Shown: positions 1-42,846, counted from the first letter of the whole stretch. The stretch: 50,064 bases of DNA, filler included, from an uncultured virus (IMG/VR IMGVR_UViG_2061766007_001805) (6 parts of one record of this genome joined end to end with filler, not necessarily neighbours in it), one strand, 5' to 3'. The notes: generated by a model not told the origin, from the sequence alone. A program made the numbers and translations.

Positions 1-249
1 AACATAAATACAGTCAACACGTTTGTCAGAAACAAATTCTTATACAAATCAATGTTGTTCGTATTTATAATCACTTTGTTGTTTTCGATGTCGATAATAT
101 TCCAATCGTTATCAAACTCTTTATATCTGATCTCATTCCAATCATTCTTTGTACAGAAAAGCGGTTCAGAGTACTTTATGTCATATGCATCGAATACATT
201 GCACACTCTTCTTATAGTGTTTCTGAACAAATTCCATTTGTTCGTTTTG
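1..249 (-). CDS. Internal fragment of the tandem LNEDFFD paralogue family (partial; may be the missing middle of the 988-1648 copy)
   Basis: The minus strand reads KTNKWNLFRNTIRRVCNVFDAYDIKYSEPLFCT...IIDIENNKV...TVFM, matching the middle of the other paralogues. It is bounded by the window start and an N gap. Confidence 0.85.
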
Positions 250-494
250 NNNNNNNNNNAGGAAAAATTCGATTTAGTTCTATAGAGGGAAAGGGAAAGA
301 GATATGAGTAGAGAAAGGGAGAAGGTGAAAGAAGTAGAGAATGTTTTTTTCTTTGCTTCTTTCTTTTTTTTTATTGAAATTTTTTTGAATTTTTTTTTCT
401 TTTTGCTTCTTTTTCTTTGCTTCTTTCTTTTTATGAAAAAGTTCTTTATTTCGTGAAGATGAGAAATCTGCAGATGATGTTGGAAGTCCACCAG

Positions 495-552
495 AGTATC
501 TCTTCAGTATCTGTTTGGTATCTGATTAGTATCTGATGAGAATGATGTTGGA
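495..552. repeat. 11-bp periodic repeat block (AGTATCTxxTx), copy 1 of about 4
   Basis: agtatctcttc/agtatctgttt/ggtatctgatt/agtatctgatg followed by agaatgatgtt. Related blocks lie at about 1766-1822, 3190-3248 and 6912-6950. Confidence 0.8.
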
Positions 553-643
553 GTGCCGGACTGGGAGACATGTACGAAAACGGCAGTTTATTGCGGACTG
601 TCAAGCAACACTACATTGTTCTATAATAAAACAAGTGTCTATT

Positions 644-683
644 AAAAAACAAAGAGCACTATCCTCACGGACCGTACTCTTTT
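644..683 (-). terminator. Probable intrinsic terminator
   Basis: The minus strand reads aaagagtacggtccGTGAggatagtgctcttt, a hairpin followed by GTTTTTT. Confidence 0.5.
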
Positions 684-811
684 AAGATATTAGTTTTAAA
701 AATTCACTACACATATTATACTGTTGTTTTCCGAAAAAGTTCTTTATTGCTATGGCAATCTTAGGTGACATAATACCATAATGACCGTTCACCCTAACTG
801 CGTACCAGGTA

Positions 812-975
812 TGAAAAATGCAGTTTATCACGGAAATTCATCAGGATCCTTTGTAAACATTGCTGATGACAGGAAATTCTTCAGAACTGTACGGAACTCT
901 TCAGAACTTATTCAGAATCCGGCAATCTTCCGTAACTATGTTTCAGGTTAAAAACCAGCAGTCTATTGCGGACTA
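812..975. repeat. About 165-bp non-coding block duplicated at about 3001-3175, with internal 10-11-bp cagaact/ggaact repeats
   Basis: cagttta..acggaaattcatcaggatc...cttcagaactgta.ggaactcttcagaacttattcagaatccgg...cttccgtaactatgtttcaggttaaa is present at both positions. Confidence 0.85.
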
Positions 976-987
976 TTAATCAAGTGG

Positions 988-1648
988 TTAATGATTCTTT
1001 ATGAAATCAAGTAATTCTCTTTCAGCTTCCGCTTTTTCAAATTCCTGTCTGTATTTATATTGTGGAGACAGTAAATATAATATGTTGTCTTTGATGAACC
1101 ACATTGTGGGTTTTATGATAGCCTTTATGTATTCATCATTCATATACATCTTCAGATTCTCATCGTTTATGTAATCCTATTCTTGATTGTCATATACAAA
1201 AACAACATCATGTTTGTATATCATATTCTATAAACTGTTTGCTATTCTATAAAGAAATCTGTATGCTCCCTTTGCTGAATTGAATACAGGCAAATCAATG
1301 NNNNNNNNNNNNNNNNNNNNNNNNNNNNNNNNNNNNNNNNNNNNNNNNNNNNNNNNNNNNNNNNNNNNNNNNNNNNNNNNNNNNNNNNNNNNNNNNNNNN
1401 NNNNNNNNNNNNNNNNNNNNNNNNNNNNNNNNNTTATTCTTTTTATTTTTGTCAAAGCAATTCCAAGTATGTGTGCTCTCATCAAATGGAGTTGAGAATT
1501 TAAAACACAAACACTATTTGTATGACGAGAACATATCCGTTAACAATGATTTTATATCTTTGCTGTTATATGGTTCCTATTCGCTATCGTTCTTCAGATT
1601 GTCATCTGTAATGTCTATATTATCGAAATAGTCTTCATTCAAGAACAT
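988..1648 (-). CDS. LNEDFFD-family paralogue (TAG read as Gln; internal N gap)
   Basis: ATG at 1648 gives MFLNEDYFDNIDITDD...DMFSSYK(TAG)CLCFKFSTPFDE. After the gap it reads IDLPVFNSAKGAYRFLYRIANSL(TAG)...LLSPQYKYRQEFEKA...KNH, ending at TAA 988-990. Confidence 0.85.
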
Positions 1649-1929
1649 ATGTATAGTAGTTTAATATAGTTTCCTTATTTATTCTCTATGTATGATGTCA
1701 GGTAAGTCTAACCAGAGAGCTTATATAAAAACAGCAATATATTATGGATGTCTGAAATGTCATATAGTATCTGATTAGTATCTGTTTAGTATCTCTTCAG
1801 TGTCTGATGAGAATGATGTTTGGTAGTCCGGATAGTCCGGAGAATATTTAACAGCAGAACTGCTATAAAAACAGCAGTTTATTACGGACTGTCAATCACA
1901 TTGTTCTTAACAAAACAATTAACTTGTTA

Positions 1930-2144
1930 GTTAAATAAACTTAAATGATTGTGTGATGTTATTGTATTGTGGTTTATTATTCATACCTTTGCATCAGCAA
2001 AAGCAACAAACCTCAGTCTCTACATAATTGCTGAATAAAGTTAAGATACTGAAACTGAAACAGTTAATTAGAATGTGGAAATTTAGCAGGTAAAAGTTGC
2101 TGAAGATAATGTACTGTTATTCAATTATATAGTGATATAATGAT
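1930..2144 (+). promoter_or_regulatory. CRISPR leader 1 with a Bacteroidota sigma-A -7 element (TACCTTTG, 1984-1991)
   Basis: Closely similar to 7249-7462. TAnnTTTG is the Bacteroidota primary-sigma promoter consensus. The region is AT-rich and abuts repeat 1. Confidence 0.8.
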
Positions 2145-2977
2145 GTCTATACAGTAGCATTCATTTCTACTTATGTAGATGCTAATGGACTCAACAGAAT
2201 CGTAAAGTCTATACAGTAGCATTCATTTCTACTTATGTAGATGTTTAGAGTTTTTTAAACTTTTTTCTGAGTCTATACAGTAGCATTCATTTCTACTTAT
2301 GTAGAGTAGATATCAGAAGATACAGAACGAGTATTTCTTGTCTATACAGTGGCATTCATTTCTACTTATGTAGATACTGCTGCCGAATGTCTATGTCTGA
2401 TGAGTCTATGCAGTGTCATTCATTTCTACTTATGTAGATATACTTATCGACGAGGACAATCCAAAAGTCTATACAGTGACATTCATTTCTACTTATGTAG
2501 ATTACGAAGACATGACCACCCAAGAATGGTACTGTCTATACAGCATTATTCATTTCTACTTATGTAGATTTTAAACGCCACTATAATATACAGAAAGTCT
2601 ATACAGTGTCATTCATTTCTACTTAATGCCTACTTCCATAGGTTGTAGATACTATAGCCACGTTCATTGCGTAAGGTGTCTATACAGTGTTATTATTTCT
2701 ACTTATGTAGATGAAAGTTTTTTCTGATATGCTATGAAAAGTCTATACAGTGTCATTCATTTCTACTTATGTAGATGAAATATATAACAAATCCATTGTA
2801 TTTGTCTATACAGTATCATTCATTTCTACTTAAATACCTACTTCAGTAGGTTGTAGATGTTATACAAACTATTTGAACTATACAGTGTTATTATTTCTAC
2901 TTATGTAGATAGGTTTCTCAAAATGTTACATCTATACAACATCATTCATTTCTACTTAATGCATACTTCCGTATGTA
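2145..2977 (+). CRISPR. CRISPR array 1: type V-A (Cas12a-like) repeat, 13 repeats / 12 spacers, no adjacent cas genes
   Basis: 36-nt repeat GTCTATACAGTAGCATTCATTTCTACTTATGTAGAT starting at 2145, 2207, 2271, 2340, 2404, 2467, 2534, 2597, 2678, 2741, 2804, ~2876 and ~2930. Spacers are unique and mostly 26-31 nt (the last two are shorter). The 3' ATTTCTAC-TTAT-GTAGAT matches the Cas12a handle hairpin. The terminal repeat is degenerate. Confidence 0.95.
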
Positions 2978-3345
2978 CACTCTAATTGTGTTTCGGGTCT
3001 GAAAATACAGTTTATTACGGAAATTCATCAGGATCATTTGTGATCATTACTGATGACGGAAAATCCTTCAGAACTGTATGGAACTCTTCAGAACTTATTC
3101 AGAATCCGGTGATTGATGCCCGGTGATCTTCCGTAACTATGTTTCAGGTTAAATACCGGCAGTATATTGCGGAAGGCTGAAATGGTGTATAGTATCTGAT
3201 TGGTATCTGTTCAGTATTTGATTAGTATCTGATGAGAATGATGTTTGGCAGTCCGGATAGTCTTTAACAGTAACGCTTCTATAAAAACGGCAGTTTATTA
3301 CGGACTATCAAACAACATTACATTATTTTGTAATGAAACAAGTGG

Positions 3346-4122
3346 TTAATGATTCTTTATAAAATCCTGTAATTCTATTTCAGTCTATGCGTTATCAAAT
3401 TCATGTCTGTATTTGTATTGAGGAGACAGTAAACATAATATGTCATTTTTTAGCCACTACATTGTGGGTTTTATGATATCCTTTATGTGTGTATCATTCA
3501 AATATATATCATTGCGGGCATTGACTATATAATCCTATTCTTGATTGTCTTTGTTTAGGTGATATACTTCAACAGCATCATTATTGTATATCATATTCTA
3601 TAAACTGTTTGCCATTCTATAAAGAAATCTATATGCTCTCTTTGCTGAATTGAATACAGGCAAATCAATGAACATGAATGCATTCAACCCGTTTTCTGTC
3701 GGCAAATGCTTATACAACTCAATGTTGTCTGTATTTACAATCATTTTGTTGTTTTCGATGTCAATAATATTCCAATCTTTATCAAACTATTTAGATCTGA
3801 TGTCATACCAATCAAACTTTGTACAAAAAAACAGTTCGGAGTGCTTTAAGCCATATGCATCTAATACTCTGCACACTCTTCTTATAGTGTTTCTGAACAA
3901 ATTCCATTTGTTCGTTTTGTCAAACAGATTCCATGTTTTTTTATATTTTCTGCTATATGGAGTTTGAAATCTAAAACGCATACATTGTTTGTATGACGAG
4001 AACATATCCTTTAACAATGATTTTACATCTTTGTTGTTATCAGTATATAGTTCAGGATTACCGGATTTCAAATCATCATCCTTTATCTCTATGTCATCGA
4101 AGAAATCTTCATTCAATATCAT
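3346..4122 (-). CDS. LNEDFFD-family paralogue, 258 aa with TAG=Gln
   Basis: The ORF track stops at TAG 3787-3789, but homology continues in frame (FDKDWNIIDIENNK...IDLPVFNSAK...LLSPQYKYRHEFDNA...KNH) to TAA 3346-3348. 777 nt with no gap. Confidence 0.9.
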
Positions 4123-4250
4123 TTGTATATGGATAAAGTAGTTTCCTTATTTATTCTCTCTGTATGATGTCAGGCAAGTCTGTTATAAAAAACGGCAGTT
4201 TATTGTGGACTATCAAACAACATTACATTATTTTGTAATGAAACAAGTGG

Positions 4251-5014
4251 TTAATGATTCTTTATAAAATTCTGTAATTCTATTTCAGTCTACGCGTTAT
4301 CAAATTCATGTCTGTATTTGTATTGTGGAGACAGTAAATATGATATATCGTTTTTTATCCACCACATTGTGGGTTTTATGATAGCCTTTATGCGCGAAAC
4401 ATTCAAATATATCTTCAGATTCTCATCGTTTATGTAATCCTATTCTTGATTGTCATATACNNNNNNNNNNNNNNNNNNNNNNNNNNNNNNNNNNNNNNNN
4501 NNNNNNNNNNNNNNNNNNNNNNNNNNNNNNNNCACATGAATGCATACAATCCGTTATTCAGAACCAAATTCTTATACAAATCAATATTGTCCGCATTTAC
4601 AATCACTTTGTTGTTTTCGATGTCGATAATTTTCCAATTTTTATCAAACTCTTTATATCTGATCTCATTCCAATCAGTCATTGTACAGAAAAGCGGTTCG
4701 GAGTACTTTATGCAATATGCATCGAATACACGGCATGCTCTTCTTATCCGGTCTCTGAACAAATCCCATTTGTTTGTTTTGTCAAACAGATTCCATTTAT
4801 CCTTTTTATTTTTGTCAAACAAATTCCAAGTGTGTGTGTTCTCGTCAAATGGAGTTGAGAATTCAAAACACAAACACTGTTTGTATGATGAGAACATATC
4901 CGTTACCAATGATGTTACAACTTTGCTGTTATATAGTTTCAATTCACTATCGTTCTTCAAATCATCATCCTTTAACTCTATGTCATCGAAGAAATCTTCA
5001 TTCAGTATCATCAT
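4251..5014 (-). CDS. LNEDFFD-family paralogue (TAG=Gln; internal N gap)
   Basis: Starts MMILNEDFFDDIELKDD. After the gap the homologous frame reads YDNQE(TAG)DYINDENLKIY...LLSPQYKYRHEFDNA(TAG)TEIELQNFIKNH, ending at TAA 4251-4253. Confidence 0.85.
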
Positions 5015-5128
5015 ATATTAATAAACTTTCCTTATTTATCATTAGGATGAACATGGCAAGTCTAACCAGAGAGCTGCTATAAAAACAACAGTTTATTGCG
5101 GACTTTGTTCTGTAATAAAAACAATTAG

Positions 5129-5926
5129 TTAATGATTCTTTATCAAATCCAGTAATTCTCTTTCAGTATCCGCTTTTTCAAATTCCTGTCTGTATTTATA
5201 TTGTGGAGACAGTAAATATAATATGTCGTCTTTTATCCACCGCATCATTGGTGAATTTATGATAAAATTCATGCATACTTCGTTAAAATACATCTTCAGA
5301 TTGTCATCATTTACATATTCCTATTCTTGATTGTCTTTGTTTAGATGATATACAGCAACAGCATCACGTTTATTGTTTAATATCATATTCTATAAACTGT
5401 TTGCCGTTCTATAAAGAAATCTATATGCACTCTTTGCTGAATTGAATACAGGCAAATCAATGAACATGAATATAATCAACCCGTTTGACGTCAACGCCAA
5501 ATGCTTATAATACTTATTAATGCTGTAATTCGTTTTTATAAGCACTTTATTGTTTTCAATGTCGATAATATTCAAATTGTCACAGGAACCATGACTGATC
5601 TCATTCCAATCGTACATTGTACAGAAAAGCGGTTCAGAGTACTTTATTCCATATGCATCAAATACACGGCACACTCTTCTTATAGTGTTTCTGAACAAAT
5701 TCCATTTGTTTGTTTTGTCAAACAGATTCCAATTGTGTGTGTATGTGTTCTCATCAAATGGAGTTGAAAATTCAAAACACAAACATTGTTTGTATGATGA
5801 GAACATATCCTTTATCAATGTTGTTGTATCTTTATTGACATCGGTATATAGTCCAGTCTTACCGGATTCCAAATCATCATCCTTTAACTCTATGTCATCA
5901 AAGAAATCTTCATTCAGTATCATCAC
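5129..5926 (-). CDS. LNEDFFD-family paralogue, 265 aa with TAG=Gln
   Basis: Reading through TAG 5390-5392 continues NMILNNKRDAVAVYHLNKDNQE(TAG)EYVNDDNLKMYF...LLSPQYKYRQEFEKADTERELLDLIKNH to TAA 5129-5131. 798 nt. Confidence 0.9.
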
Positions 5927-6054
5927 ATATTAATAATCTTTCCTTATTTATTGTCAAGATGAAGACAGCAGTCTAACCAGAGAGCTGCTATAAAAACATA
6001 TGTTTATTGCGGACTGTTAAACAACATTACATTCTTCTGTAATGAAACAAGTGG

Positions 6055-6837
6055 TTAATGATTCTTTATAAAATCCTATAATTCTCTTTCAGTATTTGCT
6101 TTTTCGAATTCCTGTCTGTATTTGTATTGGGGAGACAGTAAATATAATATGTCGTCTTTTATCCACCGCAGTGTTATGGGATTTATGATAGCCTTTATGT
6201 GCGAATTGTTCAAATATATCTTCACATTGTTATTATTTAGATACTAACTTTGATTGTTTTTGTCTATGTGATATACAAAAACAGCATCATCATTACACAT
6301 ACATCGTAAACTGTTTGCCATTCTATAAAGAAATCCATATGCGCTCTTTGCTGAATTGAATACAGGCAAATCAATGAACATAGTTACATTTAACTCGTTT
6401 TCCGCCGTCAAATGCTTATACAGTTTGATGTTATCTGCATATACAATCACCTTATTGTTTTCTATGTTGATAATATCCAAATCGCCATAGAAATTTTTAC
6501 GTCTGATGTCAATCCAATCGAACATTGTACAGAAAAATGGTTCAGAGTACTTTATGTCATACACATCGAATACATTGCACACTCTTCTTATAGTATTTCT
6601 GAACAAATACCATTTGTTTGTTTTGTCAAACAGATTCCATATGTCAAAATTCTAACTGTATCTGTTCTCATCAAATGGAGTTGAGAATCTAAAACACAAA
6701 CACTGTTTGTATGATGAGAACATGTCCTTTATCAATGATTTTGCATCTTTGCTGTCATCAGTATATAGTTCTGATTTACTATTCAGATCATCATCCTTTA
6801 TCTCTATGTCATCAAAGAAATCTTCATTCAGTATCAT
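6055..6837 (-). CDS. LNEDFFD-family paralogue, 260 aa with TAG=Gln
   Basis: Track ORFs 6652-6837 and 6244-6606 are in one frame. TAGs occur at 6652, 6244 and 6076, and the gene ends ...IKNH at TAA 6055-6057. 783 nt. Confidence 0.9.
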
Positions 6838-6852
6838 CTCATATTAATAAAC

Positions 6853-6866
6853 TTTCCATATTTATC
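6853..6866 (-). promoter_or_regulatory. ATAAATA late-promoter-like element upstream of each paralogue (also 1676-1682, 4148-4154, 5033-5039, variant at 5945-5952)
   Basis: ATAAATA(A/T)GGAAA lies about 18-27 nt before each ATG and resembles the T4-type late promoter TATAAATA. Confidence 0.55.
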
Positions 6867-7248
6867 GACAAGATGAAGACTGCAGTCTATTACGGAAGAC
6901 TGAAATGTCATAGAGTATCTCTTCAGTGTCTGATGATAATGATGTCTGGCTGACCGGTTTGTTAGAGATTGTCATATGTTGTCTGGTAGTCCGCGGAAAG
7001 ATTCGGAAGGATTTGGAAACATATGGAAGAACTACGGAAACACTCTGTAAAATCCGCGGAAACATCAGGGGATGACTGCTGGCAGTCCTAAGAGTCTTTA
7101 ACAACAGAGTTGCTATAAAAACTGCAGTTTATTGCAGATGAGAAAGCCGGTTTGTCAGTTAGTCAGTTTGGTAGTCCGGCATTTCAACTGCATCTCTTGA
7201 TAGTGATTCGATGATATTGTTCTGCAATGAAATAATTGACTTTAAGGG

Positions 7249-7462
7249 TTAAATAAACTTAAAATATTGTTCAATAATATTATATTGTGTGTTTTTTATG
7301 TACCTTTGTATCAGCAAAAGCAACGAACTCCAGTCTCCACACAATTGCTTGAGTATGGTTAAGATATTAAGACTGAAAGAGTTAATTAGAATGTGGAAAA
7401 TTAGCAGGTAAAAGTTGCTGAAGATAGTGTGCTGTTATTCAATTATATAGTGATATAATGAA
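7249..7462 (+). promoter_or_regulatory. CRISPR leader 2 with a TACCTTTG -7 element (7301-7308)
   Basis: Homologous to leader 1, including ttagcaggtaaaagttgctgaaga and tgttattcaattatatagtgatataatga just before repeat 1. Confidence 0.8.
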
Positions 7463-8273
7463 GTATATACAGTCTCATTCATTTCTACTTATGTAGATTA
7501 TAATAATCACTATAATTTTTATTACAGTCAATACAGTCTCATTCATTTCTACTTATGTAGATTTCTCTGATCTGCGTAGAGAGACCAGTACGGTCTTGAC
7601 ATTATTTCTACTTAATGCTTACTTCAGTAAGTTGTAGATTTAGACATCATACGCTCTGCTTGTATGTCTGTCTCATTCATTTCTACTTAATGCCTACTTC
7701 AGTATGTTGTAGATAAGTATGACCAGCCAACTATCTCATACGGTCTATACAGTATCATAATTTCTACTTATGTAGATACGGTATCTCTGAGCAAGGAACC
7801 AAACCAGTCTATACAGTATCATTCATTTCTACTTAATGCTTACTTCAGTAGGTTGTAGATGACGTGTTGACCGTATTGGTAGCATTAATGTCTATACAGT
7901 GTCATTATTTCTACTTATGTAGATCTGGTACTTTTGTCGTTTCCTGATTTTGTCTATACAGTATCATTCATTTCTACTTAATGCCTACTTCCATAGGTTG
8001 TAGATTATGCAAAAACTCCGCAGAAGTGAGTAGTATATACAATGTCATTCATTTCTACTTATGTAGATTGTCTGCTTGTACAATTCTTATATGGTGATCT
8101 ATACAGTGTCATTCATTTCTACTTATGTAGATTTTACATAATAATTCATCAATGAACATCTGTTTATACAGTGTTATTCATTTCTACTTATGTAGATATT
8201 GGTCAGTCTTCCACGATAGGTATAAGGTCTATATAGTATCATTCATTTCTAATTAATACATACTTCCGTATGT
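7463..8273 (+). CRISPR. CRISPR array 2: type V-A (Cas12a-like) repeat, 12 repeats / 11 spacers, no adjacent cas genes
   Basis: Repeats at 7463, 7527, ~7592, 7666, 7743, 7807, 7890, 7952, 8033, 8097, 8162 and 8227 (degenerate). Spacers are about 26-30 nt, and none is shared with array 1. Confidence 0.95.
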
Positions 8274-8327
8274 CCGGCACTGTACAGTACAGGCAATGGT
8301 TGTAGTTCAACCAAGCCGAATGCATAT

Positions 8328-8380
8328 GTCCCCAGATCGTCTGCTTCTTCGGTTTTCCCGGAAGACGACAATCTGGGGAC
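8328..8380. terminator. Strong hairpin between array 2 and the convergent minus-strand operon
   Basis: Inverted repeat gtccccagat...atctggggac. Confidence 0.55.
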
Positions 8381-8411
8381 TCTCATTGTTCTCTGCTGAA
8401 TAGTCACGCAA

Positions 8412-8529
8412 TTTTATAAGGATTGTTTTCTTCTGTTACTTCGATTGATAAATCTTTGGGAATTAAATTCATTATGACAACCTTGCACTCAAATCACGCA
8501 AAAAGTAAATCTATGTCTTGTTGTGCCAT
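8412..8529 (-). pseudogene. Internally deleted remnant of the EENNPYK phage protein family
   Basis: MAQQDIDLLFA(TGA)...NLIPKDLSIEVTEENNPYK. It retains only the family's N- and C-terminal motifs. Confidence 0.6.
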
Positions 8530-8531
8530 AA

Positions 8532-8930
8532 TTATCTTGCTCTATTTTTCATTGTCTTGCGGTAAACTTTATATTCATCAGATGTAAGAGTTCTGATGAA
8601 TAATTGTCCGTCAAAAACACATTCTTCATTACTATAATCATAATTAACTTTTTTTGGTTCAAGTAACGGATGTGTCATGTCAGGATAAAATGATATATCA
8701 GTTTTACCATTGTACATTTCCACCACATTGTGATATGCTTTAATGGTTATTTTATCAATAGGTGTGTCTGGATTATGCTCATTTTCATCAAATGATGCTA
8801 TTGCACTTATAAATTTGCAAGCCCAAGCAAAATTAGGAAAATCTTTATCCCAATATCCAAATAGGAGAACTTTATTTTTATACTTTTCAAGTTCTCCTAA
8901 TGTTTTAATTTCTATGTAGTCTTTATCCAT
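8532..8930 (-). CDS. Hypothetical phage protein
   Basis: Intact ORF MDKDYIEIKTLGEL... within the minus-strand operon. Confidence 0.75.
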   Translation of the reverse strand: MDKDYIEIKTLGELEKYKNKVLLFGYWDKDFPNFAWACKFISAIASFDENEHNPDTPIDKITIKAYHNVVEMYNGKTDISFYPDMTHPLLEPKKVNYDYSNEECVFDGQLFIRTLTSDEYKVYRKTMKNRAR

Positions 8931-8969
8931 AATCAATATCTAATGTTTCTTTTGTAAATTATTCGTTAA

Positions 8970-9389
8970 TCATATATAAGGATTGTTTTCTTCGGTTACT
9001 TCGATTGCTAAACTTTTGGGAATTAAGTCAAAGATGTCGAAATGTTTTTTAAGAAGCCAGTCGATTGCATCTGACATTATAATTGCCTGATTTTTATATC
9101 CGATTTCAGAATTACCTTTCCAAGCAAATTCGTCAATAACGCAAAAGTTGTCAAACTCTTTCTTTTCTTCATCAGTCATGCTTGACATCGGACGAAGATA
9201 AGGTTTCACAAACTCCCAAGCACCCTCTTCTTTAATCTGATGGAGTAGAGATAAAGTTAATTCTTCCTTATTCCACTTTATTTTACACTCTATAAAATCA
9301 ATCTCTCCTTCTGCCATACTAACTATTATATTATATGGCAATGACATGGACAGATACCGTAACAATAGATTTTTATTTTCTTGTTTCAT
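8970..9389 (-). CDS. Phage hypothetical protein, LLLRYLSM...KPYLRPMSSM...EENNPY family
   Basis: Shares motifs with 11153-11569 and 11678-12091. Confidence 0.85.
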   Translation of the reverse strand: MKQENKNLLLRYLSMSLPYNIIVSMAEGEIDFIECKIKWNKEELTLSLLHQIKEEGAWEFVKPYLRPMSSMTDEEKKEFDNFCVIDEFAWKGNSEIGYKNQAIIMSDAIDWLLKKHFDIFDLIPKSLAIEVTEENNPYI

Positions 9390-9391
9390 AA

Positions 9392-9799
9392 CTATTCCTT
9401 TGTTAGTTCCTTTTTATCTGCATTCCACTCATAACCTGCTTCTCTCATCTTTGTAAACAAGAGGTCACGCTGTTCTTTGGTTGCTGGATAAACGTCAAGA
9501 TGAGTAAAAGGCAATGTTCTATCATAAACTTCAAATCCATATATTGATAATCCACAATAAGCAAATGGGTATTTTCCTTCTTCTACAGTATTATCAAAAA
9601 TACATATACGGTTATCTTTAGTTGCAAGCACATCACCATCATTGGCATCTTCGATAGTCCACAATTTGAAATTATCATACAAATCTTTAACGATTGCTAT
9701 GTGACAGCCATATTCATCTTGTAAACACCCTTCTTTTGCACAATAATATGCAGTATTCTTGTCAAAAGTAACACCTTTACCAAAGAAGTCTTTAGTACA
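9392..9799 (-). CDS. C-terminal part of a modular phage protein (LWTIEDA..GDVL / PATKEQRDLLF repeat family); probably continues 10621-11139
   Basis: Reads CTKDFFGKGVTFDKNTAYYC...PATKEQRDLLFTKMREAGYEW. About 140 bp is nearly identical to 13580-13722. Confidence 0.75.
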   Translation of the reverse strand, partial: CTKDFFGKGVTFDKNTAYYCAKEGCLQDEYGCHIAIVKDLYDNFKLWTIEDANDGDVLATKDNRICIFDNTVEEGKYPFAYCGLSIYGFEVYDRTLPFTHLDVYPATKEQRDLLFTKMREAGYEWNADKKELTKE

Positions 9800-11152: not shown

Positions 11153-11569
11153 TTATTTATAAGGATTGTTTTCTTCTGTTACTGCGATTGCTAAACCTTT
11201 TGGAATTAAGCCAAGAAAATCAAAACGATGAGCATTAAGCCAATTAATTTGTTTAATACTTAATATACAAGTTGATCCTTTGTTGCCCAGCCAAAGCATG
11301 GTGTCAGGTATTAGGATAAACTCATTTATTTCTTCCTCTGTCATGCTTGACATCGGACGGAGAAATGGCTTGACAATATCAATCTTAACCTTAGAAATTA
11401 TATCTTCTCCATCCATATTTATACCTATCAATATCAATGCAATGCCCTTATATGGTTGTACTGATAGCAAGAAATATGGTTCATTGTCCTCATCTGTCTT
11501 AACTTGTAAGTCATACGGCAATGCCATGGACAAATACCTTAACAATAAATCTTTATCTTCTTGTTTCAT
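11153..11569 (-). CDS. EENNPYK-family phage protein
   Basis: MKQEDKDLLLRYLSMALPY...KPFLRPMSSMTEEE...EENNPYK. Confidence 0.85.
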   Translation of the reverse strand: MKQEDKDLLLRYLSMALPYDLQVKTDEDNEPYFLLSVQPYKGIALILIGINMDGEDIISKVKIDIVKPFLRPMSSMTEEEINEFILIPDTMLWLGNKGSTCILSIKQINWLNAHRFDFLGLIPKGLAIAVTEENNPYK

Positions 11570-11677: not shown

Positions 11678-12091
11678 TTATTTATAAGGATTGTTTTCTT
11701 CGGTTACTTTAATTGCAAGACCTTTGGGAATTAAGCCAAAGATGTCAAAATGATTATTTAGAAGAAAAAGCAGTCCTTCTGATGTATAAACAAGATTATA
11801 AGGTATTCCATTTGCATGTAAAAAACTGCCTGTATTTGTATAAGCATTCATTTCTTCATCCGTTATGCTTGACATTGGACGGAGATATGGCTTGCAATAA
11901 TCTACTTCATAATAGCCGTCACCTTCATCATAAACCGGGCAATCAATATGCAATACATCACCATCAATACCCAATAATTTATATGCATAGATGTCATCAA
12001 ATGTTTGACATTTAACACCAGACAGCAATGCCATGGACAAATACCGTAACAGTAATTCTTTATCTTGCTGTGTCATAATAAAGTTTGTCAT
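11678..12091 (-). CDS. EENNPYK-family phage protein
   Basis: MTQQDKELLLRYLSMAL...KPYLRPMSS...EENNPYK. Confidence 0.85.
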   Translation of the reverse strand: MTNFIMTQQDKELLLRYLSMALLSGVKCQTFDDIYAYKLLGIDGDVLHIDCPVYDEGDGYYEVDYCKPYLRPMSSITDEEMNAYTNTGSFLHANGIPYNLVYTSEGLLFLLNNHFDIFGLIPKGLAIKVTEENNPYK

Positions 12092-15390: not shown

Positions 15391-15783
15391 TCAAATTAAA
15401 TTTTCAAGACAATACTTTATTGCTGCTTCAGCGGCTTCTNNNNNNNNNNCTCTAAAGCTTCTGTTATCTATAAGACTATGTATAGCATAATACCAAGTGA
15501 GTTTATTTCTCATATCCCCTTCTGGCCAATAAGGACTAATACATATTGTCCAATTATGTACTTCCCTCAACCACTTCATTGCCATTTGAAGAGTTGGGGC
15601 AGCAATATATTTATCTTTATTATATACACCAGCTGGATATTGATGAGCAAAGTGATGTTCACCGTTATCATCTACACTTATGCTATAAATCATTTCTGTT
15701 GTGAAATATCCGCAATTATCTTGTATCTGCTGAAAACCTTTATCTTTAAGAAGTTTTGCTATTTCAAAACTAACGTAATCCTC
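15391..15783 (-). CDS. Hypothetical phage protein (EDYVSFEIAKLLKDKGF...APTLQMAMKWLRE), 5' end in gap
   Basis: Coherent ORF downstream of the N gap. Confidence 0.7.
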   Translation of the reverse strand, partial: EDYVSFEIAKLLKDKGFQQIQDNCGYFTTEMIYSISVDDNGEHHFAHQYPAGVYNKDKYIAAPTLQMAMKWLREVHNWTICISPYWPEGDMRNKLTWYYAIHSLIDNRSFRXXXXEAAEAAIKYCLENLI

Positions 15784-16140
15784 NNNNNNNNNNNNNNNNN
15801 NNNNNNNNNNNNNNNNNNNNNNNNNNNNNNNNNNNNNNNNNNNNNNNNNNNNNNNNNNNNNNNNNNNNNNNNNNNNNNNNNNNNNNNNNNNNNNNNNNNN
15901 NNNNNNNNNNNNNNNNNNNNNNNNNNNNNNNNNNNNNNNNNNNNNNNNNNNNNNNNNNNNNNNNNNNNNNNNNNNNNNNNNNNNNNNNNNNNNNNNNNNN
16001 NNNNNNNNNNNNNNNNNNNNNNNNNNNNNNNNNNNNNNNNNNNNNNNNNNNNNNNNNNNNNNNNNNNNNNNNNNNNNNNNNNNNNNNNNNNNNNNNNNNN
16101 NNNNNNNNNNNNNNNNNNNNNNNNNNNNNNNNNNNNNNNN

Positions 16141-16484
16141 TTGTATGAATAAGTACACCATTCCAGATTATCTACTTTATTATTATATTTGTTCTCGTCT
16201 TTATGATTTACACATGGCAAACTATTAGGATTTTCAATAAAAGTAATAGCAATTAAGTAATGAACATTGTATGTTATATGGTGTTTATTTTTAAACAAAC
16301 CAACCGTTAAATATTGTCCAAAACCTTTTATTAAAGAAAGAAGCCTTTCTTTTCTGTGGATAATTTTGCCGTTTTTATAATAGATAACCCTTGCACATGA
16401 TTTTATCCTACCGTATGAACTTGCTTGGTATATTCCTTCATAATTCGGAATATCTTTCCATGTTTCTTCTGTAATTGTTGCCAT
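16141..16484 (-). CDS. NUMOD4-HNH homing endonuclease (3' end in gap)
   Basis: ETWKDIPNYEGIYQASSYGRIKS (NUMOD4) and VHYLIAITFI...VNHKDENKYNNKVDNLEWCT (HNH). Confidence 0.9.
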
Positions 16485-16497
16485 AGTTATTTCTCCT

Positions 16498-16713
16498 TTA
16501 TAATTCTAAAGTTTCAAAATGTTTCAATAAGTCAATACACACATCGGCCTTACCTATATAGAAAGGCCATCGAAAATCCAAGTCCTGTCTCCTTGGCTTT
16601 GGCTTGAACTTGTCAGCGACCTTACAATAGTGGTCGCGGCATTCTTCCAGTGCTTTCTTGGAAATTGTTATCTTATCATCACAGACAACATATTCGTCTT
16701 TTTCTAACACCAT
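16498..16713 (-). CDS. Hypothetical phage protein
   Basis: 71-aa ORF in the operon. Confidence 0.6.
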   Translation of the reverse strand: MVLEKDEYVVCDDKITISKKALEECRDHYCKVADKFKPKPRRQDLDFRWPFYIGKADVCIDLLKHFETLEL

Positions 16714-20711: not shown

Positions 20712-20917
20712 TTCTCTTCGTCTTTAGTCAGTCTGTTGTACTGCTCCTCAGTGAGCCTCGTAATGTTGATGATGGCGTACGACGTGGCGTTCTTCTCGTG
20801 GCACACGTCCATGAGAGCTTCCTTCGTTGGGAACGCGTCGAAGTAGCAGTTCACATACGCGTTGTAGTTCGTGAGGATTGTGAACAGCCAGTGCTCTTTC
20901 TTCTGCTTCTTTTCCAT
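20708..20917 (-). CDS. Hypothetical phage protein
   Basis: 69-aa ORF whose stop overlaps the next start. Confidence 0.6.
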   Translation of the reverse strand: MEKKQKKEHWLFTILTNYNAYVNCYFDAFPTKEALMDVCHEKNATSYAIINITRLTEEQYNRLTKDEEK

Positions 20918-21049
20918 AAGTGTTTAATTGTTGTTTAATTGTTCGTTGTACAGTCTCACTGCGTCTTTCCAGCTGATGGTCTGGCGCTTCGTCATCGGCT
21001 CGNNNNNNNNNNNNNNNNNNNNNNNNNNNNNNNNNNNNNNNNNNNNNNN

Positions 21050-21500
21050 AGTCTATCACTTCGTCGAGACACGCCCTTCCGAAGTTTCTCTGCATGATGT
21101 AGTCCATCTGCGTGTGGACTATCATGTCCGAGAGTGTATACACGTCCATAGCCTTCAGTACGTTCCATACTCTTACGGAGAACTCCTCTGGTTTGAGTTT
21201 CTTCTGCAGTATAGCGTCTTTCTTCAGCTTAACGAGAGGCTGCTCTTCTTCCGTAAATATGCACTCAGCATCTTTTTCAAGCGGCTCAGACGACTTGAGA
21301 CCGTCTATGAAGCCTTTCATGTACACTTCCAACAACGATTCGTGGAATACTCTCGCGATTGGAGCAATCAAGCCCTCTGCGTCTTTCTTTGCTTGTTCAA
21401 TTTTACCTTCTGTCATAAGCGTTTGTTTTGAGTTGTTAGAAATCGTCATCGTCATACCAGTCTTCTGAAAGACCTCTTCCATAGTGTATCGGACACTCAA
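21050..21500 (-). CDS. Protein with an RNA polymerase alpha C-terminal-domain-like module (3' end in gap)
   Basis: EEFSVRVWNVLKAMDVYTLSDMI...QRNFGRACLDEV matches the alpha-CTD pattern LSVRsxNcLk...tlgDL...rNfGrKSlxEI. Confidence 0.75.
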
Positions 21501-37271: not shown

Positions 37272-37907
37272 TTACTGATTGACAAGAGACTTTTCGTAGT
37301 CTGATAGGTACATCCACTTGTAACCACCGTGTTTTTGGTATTTGCCATATATCACATTGCGTATTGCGGAGCGAGAAAAACCTTCGAGTTCTGCATGATG
37401 CAGAGAAGGATATATTTGAACAAAGTTACCATCTGTAGTAAGTTTTACAACGGCAACCCTACTGTGCGATGGAATGCCCATTTTCGATTTTGATGAAGCC
37501 TTGCAATGATGCTCTTTTGAGTTGTTCATCTTATAAGTACACCACTGTAAGTTACTTGCAACGGAATTACTTGGGTTATCGTCTATATGGTCTACGCACG
37601 GATAGTTGTTTGGATTTGGGATAAAAGCCATTGCGATTACCCTATGAATCAACTGTGTGTCCTGTTTCCCATTCTTTATAAATGTTGTTCTTCTATATGG
37701 TGAACTTGGGGATGTGTATGTACTACTTAAATGTGGTTTCATGTTGTATTTAACTTTTACTCCGTCTTTGCGTGTTCTGTATATTATTCTACTTAACACA
37801 ACAATTCGTCCAAGGTTTGATACCATGTAATCGCCCTCGTAACCAACTACATCTCGCCACTCTTCGTTTTCAAGCGTAATGCTTGCTAAAAATTCTTCGT
37901 TTGTCAT
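37272..37907 (-). CDS. NUMOD4-HNH-NUMOD1 homing endonuclease inserted antisense in the module
   Basis: EEWRDVVGYEGDYMVSNLGR; IHRVIAMAFIPNPNNYPCVDHIDDNPSNSVASNLQWCT; C-terminal GGYKWMY. Confidence 0.9.
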   Translation of the reverse strand: MTNEEFLASITLENEEWRDVVGYEGDYMVSNLGRIVVLSRIIYRTRKDGVKVKYNMKPHLSSTYTSPSSPYRRTTFIKNGKQDTQLIHRVIAMAFIPNPNNYPCVDHIDDNPSNSVASNLQWCTYKMNNSKEHHCKASSKSKMGIPSHSRVAVVKLTTDGNFVQIYPSLHHAELEGFSRSAIRNVIYGKYQKHGGYKWMYLSDYEKSLVNQ

Positions 37908-38003
37908 TGTCAACTTTATTTAATGATGTCAACGATTAAAAGAAGAGGAAGAGGCGTTGACTTACCTCTTGTCATTCAGTTTGCAACTCTGAACTATCCT
38001 CGA
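37908..38003 (-). ncRNA. Structured 5' leader (three-way junction plus pseudoknot) of the endonuclease gene
   Basis: Same architecture, with compensatory changes, as 42847-42941. Confidence 0.65.
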
Positions 38004-39656: not shown

Positions 39657-40457
39657 TCATTCTGTTGTGCTTCCATATTGCACAATATGTCCTCTTACTT
39701 TCCTATTTTCTTTAATCGCTTTTCTAATATTATCTCTTGTCACTCCAATTTCTTTAGCAGCGTCCTTTAGCATATTCCATCGTTTAATTTCTTTCCCACT
39801 ACTATCTATTTCAATTACCACCTTTGTGTTTTTTGAAAGTCTTCTTTTGTATTTCAAATTATCATGTTTCTTTGTAAACCACATAAACCCACCAGCGGAT
39901 TGTGTGTTATCATCTAAAACGCTTCGTATTTGTGATGCGTATATACCTGTTGCGGCTTGTGCCTTTTGCATAGATTCGTAATGCGCAACAAACACACCAT
40001 CTTTTGTGTACTGAAAAACTTCTATCAAAATGCCAAGTTCTTTTTTCTTTGCATTTATTTTTATATTCCTTTCATCTGTGTATGTGTTTTCTTTGCAATG
40101 TTGTAGTGTGAGTGGGTTGTTTGCGTTTTCTTTTGGAGTAACCCATCTGAGGTTTGAAATGCGAAAATCCGTTTTGTCTGTGTTTATATGGTCAATATGC
40201 GGTTTGTTTTCGGGATTTGGAACGAATGCTTCCATGATTAAGCGATGGACAAGATGTTGCTTACTTCTCTTTTCTTTACAAAGTGTAACACACGGATAAC
40301 CGAAAGGATTGAGGTGGTGTGGAACAATCCTTTCTTTACAGCACCTCAGACCGTTGCCCTGCTTTACATATCTTTCTATTGCCATAACTCTGCCAAGATT
40401 GCTAATTTTAAAATAGCCTTCATACCCTTTAATGTCTTTCCAAATTTCTTGTTCCAT
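39657..40457 (-). CDS. NUMOD4-HNH-NUMOD1 homing endonuclease
   Basis: MEQEIWKDIKGYEGYFKISNLGR; VHRLIMEAFVPNPENKPHIDHINTDKTDFRISNLRWVTPKENANN; VFQYTKDG...SAGGFMW. Confidence 0.9.
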   Translation of the reverse strand: MEQEIWKDIKGYEGYFKISNLGRVMAIERYVKQGNGLRCCKERIVPHHLNPFGYPCVTLCKEKRSKQHLVHRLIMEAFVPNPENKPHIDHINTDKTDFRISNLRWVTPKENANNPLTLQHCKENTYTDERNIKINAKKKELGILIEVFQYTKDGVFVAHYESMQKAQAATGIYASQIRSVLDDNTQSAGGFMWFTKKHDNLKYKRRLSKNTKVVIEIDSSGKEIKRWNMLKDAAKEIGVTRDNIRKAIKENRKVRGHIVQYGSTTE

Positions 40458-40731
40458 AACTATAAAAACGGAAATGCCCCGAAAGAGCCACCACGCATCT
40501 AACGAGACAAATCCATTTAGTCGTATATATTCGCTTAGTGGTGGATAAGCGTTTATTTCTTTTGCAAAGTTACAAAGATAATTTGAAACTACCAAATGTA
40601 TTAAGATTATTTAATATCACAAATTAAGCCGTTTNNNNNNNNNNNNNNNNNNNNNNNNNNTGGCATAGTTGTAGGGAAAGTATAAGAAAACCCGCCAAAA
40701 CGCTTTAAAATGCGAAATAGACGGGTTTTTA

Positions 40732-42031: not shown

Positions 42032-42846
42032 TTAATCGTTAATATCTATTTTATAATTTAATAGTGCATCATAAACGCGTTTTATGATTTTCCCTTCGTC
42101 GTAATACTTTTGCGCAACCTCTTTGATATATATTTCTTTCGCTTGTTTATAGGCAGTAAAGGCTTGCTCTGGCGTGTCGAAAGTTCCTATTACTTTTCGT
42201 TTGGCATCCTTTCGCAAAATACCAAAAGAACAATATGCGGTATATCTTTTACCTCTCTTTCTTACACCGATTGGCACATCACCTCGCTTAGAATTGTTTT
42301 TAGTGAACAAAGAGTTAATTTCTATAGGAACAAAACAGCACGTTAAAGGCGAATAAATTTTATTACCTTTTGAAATAATGTCCTTGTCAAGATGATAACT
42401 TTCCCTAAAACCATTCTTGTTCGCCCATTCATAAAAGTTACTAAAAAGCAACCATTCTTCACACACTTCGCAACCTTTGTACGTTGGCTCTTTTTTTTGA
42501 TACGACTCACTGTAGCATCGAACAATCATTGACTTCCATGCTCGATAAATAAGTTCTATTTCTCCATTACATGTAGCATCCATGTCAAATAGTGCGACAC
42601 CANNNNNNNNNNNNNNNNNCTTCTTGCTTGCCCTTGCAGTCTCGTGTGGGTATTTTCGTTGTAACATTTTCTACACCCATGCCCCCTTGTGCAATGCAAT
42701 GTTGCCATCTGTGAAAAATAACCGTGTTTTGGGCAAAAAATCTCCACTATTTGATGGCTTCCTACAATGTTTGGCACTCTGTCATAACCATAAGTACCTA
42801 CACCGTGTTTTGCTTCCGATTTTGCAACAAACTCTTCCTTTGTCAT
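42032..42846 (-). CDS. HNH/AP2-type phage endonuclease with an N-terminal Zn-finger repeat (frame broken by a gap)
   Basis: CPKHGYF...GHGCRKC; WKSMIVRCY...YKGCEVCEEWLLFSNF...LDKDII..GNKIYSP.TCCFVP..IN; IGTFDTPEQAFTAYK. Confidence 0.8.

Follow-up and report, generated by a model that had tools for sequence, protein, structure and literature searches.

Two probably functional Cas12a-type CRISPR arrays without neighboring cas genes in a TAG-recoded bovine-gut phage

We analyzed a 50,064-nt stretch of DNA from an uncultured virus (IMG/VR record IMGVR_UViG_2061766007_001805; six parts of one record joined with filler), referred to here as the window, in which positions 1-8400 hold six tandem minus-strand copies of one gene family and two plus-strand CRISPR arrays. 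Our data indicated that these are real, well-formed arrays of the Cas12a type that are probably functional. With a probability of roughly 0.55, we favor the reading that they are functional type V-A CRISPR RNA (crRNA) arrays on a TAG-recoded bovine-gut phage, used through the Cas12a of its host. The arrays and the elements adjoining them are the following.

1984..2144, plus strand: leader of array 1, with TACCTTTG at 1984-1991, a candidate Bacteroidota-type -7 element
2145..2983, plus strand: CRISPR array 1, 13 repeats (12 with an intact handle and one degenerate terminal repeat) and 12 spacers
2597-2650 and 2804-2858, plus strand: long-loop repeats of array 1, with a degenerate long-type terminal repeat at 2930-2983
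7301..7462, plus strand: leader of array 2, with TACCTTTG at 7301-7308
7463..8280, plus strand: CRISPR array 2, 12 repeats (11 with an intact handle and one degenerate terminal repeat) and 11 spacers
7586-7639, 7661-7714, 7807-7860, and 7952-8005, plus strand: long-loop repeats of array 2, with a degenerate long-type terminal repeat at 8227-8280
8328..8381, plus strand: G+C-rich hairpin directly downstream of array 2, seen in the fold of 8281-8400

Both arrays have the 36-nt consensus repeat GTCTATACAGTGTCATTCATTTCTACTTATGTAGAT. The handle pattern TTTCTAC-N3-26-GTAGA occurred 23 times in the window, always on the plus strand and always within the two arrays, where shuffled sequences gave an expectation of 0.21 by chance and reached 23 occurrences in 0 of 100 shuffles; the same pattern revealed no solitary handle outside the arrays in the window. 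The 23 spacers all differ from one another, with no 12-mer common to any two, and 19 of them are 26-33 nt long, the four shorter ones measuring 16, 19, 21, and 23 nt. The leader regions (1880-2150 and 7195-7468) share 90% identity, and the polarity of the arrays is canonical, with the conserved leader upstream and a degenerate terminal repeat, lacking GTAGAT in both arrays, at the far end, as in the Bacteroidales genome G260 described below. The number of handles against the chance expectation, the distinct spacers, and the similarity of the leaders thus confirmed what an earlier reading of this DNA without database searches (the sequence-only reading) had reported, namely two arrays of 13 and 12 repeats with 23 different spacers.

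Conservation was uneven along the repeat. Across the 23 repeats, a single mismatch in 299 positions was seen at the 13 sites that make up the stem and flanks of the handle, whereas the 5' part of the repeat, which is removed by Cas12a, showed 24 mismatches in 323 positions in the 17 repeats without a register shift and 113 in 437 when all 23 repeats were counted (Fisher p 2e-27 versus the handle), the latter count being inflated by 1-nt indels in the other six repeats. A near-invariant handle beside a drifted 5' part is the signature expected if Cas12a must still bind and cut the RNAs, and the drift itself is expected if frequent acquisition no longer homogenizes the repeats. Repeat 3 of array 1 (2290-2311) ends with GTAGAGTAGAT, in which the 3' stem strand is duplicated by 5 nt.

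The assignment to type V-A was examined through the surroundings of the same handle in other genomes. The exact 3' handle (ATTTCTACTTATGTAGAT, 18 nt) was found in arrays of eight contigs of a genome collection, four of which carry a neighboring open reading frame (ORF) of 1262-1353 amino acids (aa) scoring 422-1034 bits on the Cas12a model TIGR04330 (cut-off, 300 bits). These four loci agree with the repeat type proposed by the sequence-only reading, and by this criterion the window repeats are of type V-A. Similar repeats were then sought in a sample of 401 Bacteroidales genomes, where a non-finding does not amount to absence. G260 holds a 16-repeat array located 2 kb from a Cas12a ORF (1410 aa, 1575 bits), and its repeat (GTCTATACAGACACTTTAATTTCTACTATTGTAGAT) agrees with the window consensus at 29 of 36 positions, the first 10 nt included. 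Such a genome represents a candidate type of host or donor. G173, also of the Bacteroidales, holds a second Cas12a-linked locus, and the handles of both loci have the loop TATT. No closer host repeat was found in the 12 genomes searched within the GTDB family of G260, and a further 401 sampled Bacteroidia genomes yielded only G462, with a less similar repeat. The repeat had one match in IMG/VR, with no array around it, and one in JGI metagenome contigs, which lies inside a coding-looking contig and was judged to be due to chance. In the window itself, no cas gene was detected by Pfam (30 largest ORFs) or PADLOC (45 ORFs), and no Cas12a by a profile of four Cas12a proteins or by tblastn in six frames with TAG read as glutamine (best E 0.86 and 0.16). 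For the 50-kb window, with its N content of 5.5%, the claim that no cas gene lies near the arrays was therefore borne out.

The handles exist in two forms. Their loop is TTAT in 17 handles and 22-23 nt long in the other six, the long form corresponding to the short form plus a palindromic insert of 18-19 nt; the degenerate terminal repeat of each array also belongs to the long type. The insert folds as an inner hairpin nested within the Cas12a stem; its six inner pairs are formed in 93.8% of cells across the eight long-type repeats, among which one inner pair varies (CG, AU, UA, or UG). The inner helix is intact in the terminal repeats although the 3' strand of the outer stem is lost there. 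The covariation score was matched by 13 of 500 shuffles, and the number of pairs changed on both sides was not exceptional, being matched by 345 of 500. For a set of eight related sequences with one covarying pair, this provides modest evidence that the inner hairpin may have been kept by compensatory changes. In array 2, repeats 4 through 9 (7673-8125) are long and short in turn, with a period of 145 nt, a pattern that would not be the product of leader-end acquisition copying one repeat form. The long-loop handle was not found in IMG/VR (six pattern loci, none of them an array) or in the arrays of the 11 genomes examined, and no natural loop insertion in Cas12a handles appeared in the titles and abstracts returned by a literature search, which does not by itself prove that such insertions are unpublished.

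Long-form handles can plausibly work, because the handle loop is solvent-exposed and ErCas12a tolerates 5-nt, 10-nt, and MS2 extensions of it with reduced activity, as stated in the sections of PMC11031708 consulted here. A more speculative proposal, which we consider improbable, is that the dimorphic repeats provide two guide classes from one array, ordinary crRNAs and crRNAs with an extra hairpin serving as a functional module. Under this proposal, the survival of the hairpin in terminal repeats devoid of the Cas12a stem would reflect a function independent of Cas12a, and the hairpin could be bound by a phage protein, act as a tag for sorting between host and phage effectors, or be a stabilizer. 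A hairpin-binding phage protein might conceivably be the neighboring family with an acidic N-terminus described below.

Public sequencing data placed this DNA mostly in the bovine gut. Runs holding 4533-9799 were mainly bovine gut metagenomes, and the rest were gut or unspecified metagenomes, carried a coded organism, or were unlabeled. Of the sampled words of this segment, fractions of 0.93 and 0.91 are present in two runs of one sample, which may be the source of the record, and fractions of 0.05-0.20 in 18 other runs from 14 further studies. Contigs were compared from three RNA libraries and one DNA run (X3), all from other studies; such data show presence, not RNA ends or strand. In the RNA-library run X18, contig 2 (304 nt) covers 7888-8099 and 8165-8256 with 0 mismatches, spanning four spacers of array 2 without one repeat-spacer unit (8100-8164), and in the RNA-library run X20 another spacer follows a long-form repeat. 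Several contigs of X3 have window-type repeats flanking 26-28-nt inserts absent from the window, and X3 also contains a joint that deletes 2.09 kb (5097-7183), equal to two paralogue copies. No contig of the three RNA runs fell on the paralogues at 4533-7700, a gap to which no weight is given, since missing cover does not count as evidence. Collectively, the array is present elsewhere with the loss of a unit, other samples combine the repeat family with different spacers, and the number of paralogues varies.

Under the favored reading, each array would be transcribed rightward from its own leader, and a Cas12a supplied in trans, most likely that of the host, would cut the pre-crRNA upstream of each AUUUCUAC-loop-GUAGAU handle, keeping the handle and the spacer as a guide. 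These guides would be directed against competing phages or other mobile elements, and the two arrays would have arisen by segmental duplication of one array-bearing intergenic module in a tandemly duplicated gene region. We infer the transcription start, the processing, the Cas12a used, the targets, and the host. The loading of phage crRNAs onto host Cas12a, as put forward in the sequence-only reading, is made plausible by the Cas12a-type handles and by published phage RNAs that load Cas12a. That reading had also assigned each array a homologous leader with a host-type promoter; the homology holds at 90% identity, but the promoter is weaker than claimed, since neither TAnnTTTG nor sigma-70 sites are enriched. 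TAnnTTTG, a Bacteroidetes -7 promoter motif, is present in both leaders as TACCTTTG, to which a promoter role can be tentatively assigned. A sigma-70 scan returned 40 sites versus 42.8 in shuffles, and intrinsic terminators likewise showed no excess above shuffles. The fold of 8281-8400 downstream of array 2 (-45.5 kcal/mol; z, -4.3) was equaled in stability by 0 of 200 shuffles; no T tract follows the hairpin at 8328-8381, which is possibly a terminator or a stable 3' end.

Several observations weigh against this reading, including those on targets. Searched with both arrays, 50,697 phage records (INPHARED) contained no match with E below 0.2; of the 4 spacers, among the 23, whose 20-mers were searched in IMG/VR, three had no match; no self-target longer than 16 nt exists in the window; and 356 inter-repeat stretches of Cas12a arrays contained nothing convincing when compared with the window, the longest being 21 nt at 86%. 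No protospacer was found in the searched sets, and hence neither a target nor a protospacer adjacent motif (PAM) could be derived. The nearest host repeat is only 81% identical and has a different loop, and the phage leaders do not resemble those of G260 and G173. The 10 occurrences of TAnnTTTG on both strands of the first 8.4 kb are about the number estimated from base composition. RNA-library contigs are not proof of transcription because DNA can occur in such libraries, and the X3 arrays with other spacers could be bacterial instead of belonging to the phage. Finally, the negative result for cas genes covers the 50-kb window only, and a phage-borne cas12a elsewhere remains compatible with it.

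Matches obtained in these target searches were also inspected. Those in INPHARED straddle repeat-spacer borders or fall in phages of unrelated hosts, and a 23-nt exact match to Lak genomes, which crosses a repeat-spacer border, is A+T-rich, and has E 0.3, was rejected as chance. The fourth 20-mer matched a 4-kb virus with a Rep-like ORF, where the flank is GGGC rather than TTTV and 2 of the 8 remaining nucleotides match; this was also attributed to chance, about 0.1 chance matches being expected per IMG/VR scan by our estimate. The 401 Bacteroidales genomes contained no credible protospacer. Spacer targets with a 5' TTTV PAM, which the sequence-only reading had advised looking for, were thus not found in INPHARED with both arrays or in IMG/VR with the 4 of 23 spacers searched.

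Among the alternatives, the one we regard as a tentative possibility is that these are ordinary remote arrays serving a Cas12a, or a related type V effector, whose gene the phage carries outside the window. No Cas protein was found in the 50 kb around the two arrays, but the window covers a part of the genome only, and 5.5% of it is N. Phage-borne class 2 effectors do exist, including type V systems in huge phages (according to the portion of PMC7162821 consulted) and one reported phage-borne Cas12a (PMC12676247), and spacer turnover in the population needs adaptation machinery from somewhere. The drifted 5' parts of the repeats nevertheless differ from the uniform repeats of Cas12a-linked arrays: all 15 listed repeats of G260 are identical, alongside one variant, and 26 of 29 are identical in G173.

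The arrays may instead be RNA anti-CRISPRs or regulators, with handles that soak up host Cas12a or guides that repress the cas promoter or defense genes, which we judge to be unlikely but still a live rival. RNA anti-CRISPRs (Racrs) RacrVA1-3 inhibit the type V-A system of Moraxella bovoculi (PMC10651486, as covered by the extract used), but those are described there as solitary repeats, whereas arrays of 13 and 12 are found here. Strict selection on the handle and the supply of 23 handles from two loci would suit a decoy, and the four short spacers (16-23 nt) might bind without cutting. A decoy, however, needs neither the canonical length of 19 of the 23 spacers, nor their being all different, nor their turnover. 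PAM-proximal seeds of the 23 spacers gave 24 nine-mer matches to eight loci, comprising Cas12a genes and arrays from six genomes, compared with 35.8 +/- 16.7 for shuffled spacers, and none of the matches in these loci had a convincing TTTV with extension; seeds in these loci are no more frequent than for shuffled spacers, but the test is weak, as the true host is not among the genomes.

The gene family interleaved with the arrays comprises six copies and is accompanied by an array-less intergenic module, as listed here.

3..248, minus strand: partial paralogue, truncated at the start of the window and by the N run 250-259
260..987, no strand assigned: array-less homologue of the array 1 intergenic module, with flanks matching that module
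988..1648, minus strand: paralogue copy with the N run 1301-1433 inside
3346..4122, minus strand: paralogue copy of 258 aa with 5 in-frame TAG, neighbor of an array
4251..5014, minus strand: paralogue copy with the N run 4461-4532 inside
5129..5926, minus strand: paralogue copy of 265 aa with 2 in-frame TAG
6055..6837, minus strand: paralogue copy of 260 aa with 3 in-frame TAG

The interleaving of the arrays with five or six copies of a ~260-aa gene, as noted in the sequence-only reading, was therefore observed with six copies located on the minus strand, and the map of N runs (1301-1433 and 4461-4532) agrees that the N-free stretches 1434-4460 and 4533-9799 physically tie each array to recoded paralogues. 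With translation table 11, the paralogues are broken into pieces of 111-178 aa and are open only when TAG is taken as sense, and the three full copies all end at TAA. One TAG column is common to all three full copies, and other columns read TAG/TAG/CGA and CAG/CTG/TAG; the protein is conserved beyond the TAGs up to a common C-terminus. These features support the earlier proposal of TAG recoding and show that TAG is read as sense. Database homologues have glutamine at the TAG columns, but they were possibly called with the same code, so this is not independent evidence, and glutamine is the presumed residue.

The family is restricted. At E <= 0.001, 21 related proteins were found among 5.8 billion clusters, and a profile retrieved 25 among 1.84 billion representatives, all of them unannotated and from metagenomes; distant members of ~245 aa have a conserved acidic N-terminus (MILNEDYFxDIEIxDDDI). 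The family had no Pfam, PHROG, PADLOC, or PDB-sequence match, and no nuclease or RNA-binding signature was seen in it. An AlphaFold model (predicted local distance difference test, pLDDT, 79; predicted template modeling score, pTM, 0.77) has an alpha+beta core, with which Foldseek found nothing at E <= 0.001 in PDB or BFVD, and a VIA structure comparison was uninformative (best Z 5.6, to small ribosomal alpha+beta proteins). Clusters of the type III secretion sorting platform, returned from the ESM Atlas for the homologue P0035 with scores of 0.85-0.87, were rated probably wrong by the tool itself. Pattern searches of IMG/VR gave 131 and 154 matches, none confirmed, and tblastn of INPHARED with a window copy and the distant member P0035 gave no match.

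A role of the paralogues as accessory or alternative effectors acting with the array RNAs would have been the most novel part of the sequence-only reading, and we consider it very improbable. The physical interleaving on N-free DNA and the restricted, unannotated nature of the family speak for such a partnership, whereas the searches of families and folds above (Pfam, PHROG, PADLOC, PDB, and AlphaFold/Foldseek) gave it no evidence and revealed no Cas-like fold. The paralogues lie on the strand opposite to the arrays, the array-less module also sits between two copies, and in the population the number of copies changes independently of array 2. These findings, like the ratio of nonsynonymous to synonymous substitution between the copies (dN/dS, 0.42-0.63) and an unrelated tandem family next door, are consistent with a fast-evolving accessory family. 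That second family, phrog_10841 (8970-9389, 11153-11569, and 11678-12091), is unrelated to the ~260-aa family and has conserved 3' ends. Duplicated accessory genes are clustered in this region, and we favor the reading that the paralogues are neighbors rather than parts of a system, interleaved with the arrays because the array module was duplicated within a tandem gene region.

The intergenic modules recur within the paralogue cluster and point to how this duplication may have proceeded. Segments 495-637 and 787-972 of the array-less module match 1766-1918 (71%) and 2975-3173 (81%) around array 1, respectively, and in the module at 260-987 the leader and array are replaced by ~150 bp, which suggests a segmental duplication. 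The large intergenic modules also contain short tandem repeats (495-535, 1765-1806, 3190-3233, 878-917, and 3066-3104), made of an 11-nt unit (TAGTATCTGAT, x2.7-4 copies) or a 10-nt unit (CTTCAGAACT, x~3.8 copies); these units look like protein-binding iterons.

A misjoin of a bacterial Cas12a array to phage DNA during assembly is hardly credible despite the 65 N runs and the occurrence of the same repeat family with other spacers in other samples, as both arrays lie in intergenic modules whose flanks recur in the paralogue cluster and on N-free stretches with TAG-bearing paralogues, the two runs cited above hold most words of 4533-9799 (though possibly being its source), and DNA just upstream of leader 2 is continuous with the paralogue region in contigs of another study.

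The window as a whole is phage-like DNA with a G+C content of 40.7% and 65 N runs. Its genes, annotated with Pfam and PHROG, include a sliding clamp, a serine recombinase, a metallophosphoesterase, and several PHROG families of unknown function. Four HNH/NUMOD homing endonuclease genes lie within 27 kb (15690-16517, 37272-37913, 39657-40595, and 42032-42736). The ORF at 20748-21500, with an N run inside, has the C-terminal domain of the RNA polymerase alpha subunit (PF03118, E 3.2e-8) and may encode a phage transcription factor. Rfam and tRNA scans of the window gave no match, and no suppressor tRNA was found in it.

The identity of the phage and its host had been suggested to be a Lak megaphage and Prevotella, respectively, and neither suggestion was upheld. 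Megablast of 30 kb of the window against a phage collection including Lak-A1, A2, and C1 gave no match, the sliding clamp matched 'Bacteriophage sp.' records at no more than 29% identity with no Lak among the 15 best matches listed, and tblastn did not detect the paralogue family in the Lak-A1, A2, and C1 records. The element therefore does not appear to be a close relative of Lak megaphages, which it resembles in reading TAG as an amino acid and in its animal gut habitat, and from whose A1, A2, and C1 genomes it differs in lacking a nucleotide match (window G+C, 40.7%). As for the host, the signs are indirect, and Bacteroidota-like without being specific to Prevotella: Shine-Dalgarno (SD)-like motifs are few (upstream of 3 of 24 genes only), TAnnTTTG occurs in both leaders, and the nearest repeat is in G260, a Bacteroidales genome. 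A host in the Bacteroidota is thus probable.

Taken together, these arrays belong to a kind already known and do not constitute a new system, as the sequence-only reading had proposed, since phage arrays without cas genes and phage RNAs that load Cas12a have both been published (PMC7162821 and PMC10651486, each to the extent covered by the excerpts drawn on). Phages without cas genes that carry host-like repeats were described by Al-Shayeb 2020 (PMC7162821); in the excerpt used, those arrays resemble ours in having no interference or adaptation genes in the region, a bacterial-like repeat, and a proposed use of host Cas proteins against competing phages. They are described there as compact, with a median of six repeats, whereas ours have 13 and 12, and ours differ further from what is given there in being of the V-A type, on a phage reading TAG as sense, with two paralogous arrays and dimorphic repeats. 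Canonical V-A loci, as in G260 and G173, are alike in the 36-nt repeat, the AUUUCUAC-loop-GUAGAU handle, the spacers of 26-31 nt, the upstream leader, and the degenerate terminal repeat. In contrast to them, no cas12a, cas4, cas1, or cas2 adjoins the arrays within the window, the 5' parts of the repeats have drifted, six handles carry an 18-19-nt insert, and the loop is TTAT rather than TATT.

The closest experimental precedents are phage-encoded repeat mimics. Loading of Cas12a by phage RNAs was shown experimentally for RacrVA1-3 (Camara-Wilpert et al. 2023, PMC10651486), and CracrVA1 also loads Cas12a (bioRxiv 10.1101/2024.10.29.618823); in the portions of these two sources consulted, the mimics are bound and processed by host Cas12a, which shows that a phage RNA with such a handle can load the host enzyme. 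CracrVA1, as described in that part of the preprint, consists of one repeat-like unit, a 21-nt guide, and a terminator, and matches the cas12a promoter. Compared with the mimics as so described, the present elements are complete arrays in which many spacers are variable and of full length, and no match of theirs to a cas promoter was detected in the loci examined.

Our analysis contributes a clear example in which a stop-codon-recoded rumen phage carries Cas12a-type arrays of full size. The rumen is a habitat rich in Cas12a. The data point to the presence of the array in RNA libraries and to a turnover of its spacers in the absence of local cas genes; if the arrays are served by Cas12a and adaptation proteins of the host, the phage would possess an updatable guide library at no protein cost. 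What is new here is the loop hairpin in six handles and both terminal repeats, array 2 in an RNA-library contig, and the occurrence of other spacers elsewhere. The natural loop-extended handle is the one feature that we could not place among known systems. The engineered loop-extended crRNAs likewise carry extra nucleotides in the exposed handle loop, with editing below the wild-type level, but they are man-made (PMC11031708, in the sections consulted), whereas a natural hairpin insert of 18-19 nt is present here in 6 of 23 handles and both terminal repeats. As a counterpart of the loop insertions engineered into Cas12a guides, this natural handle is also of practical interest.

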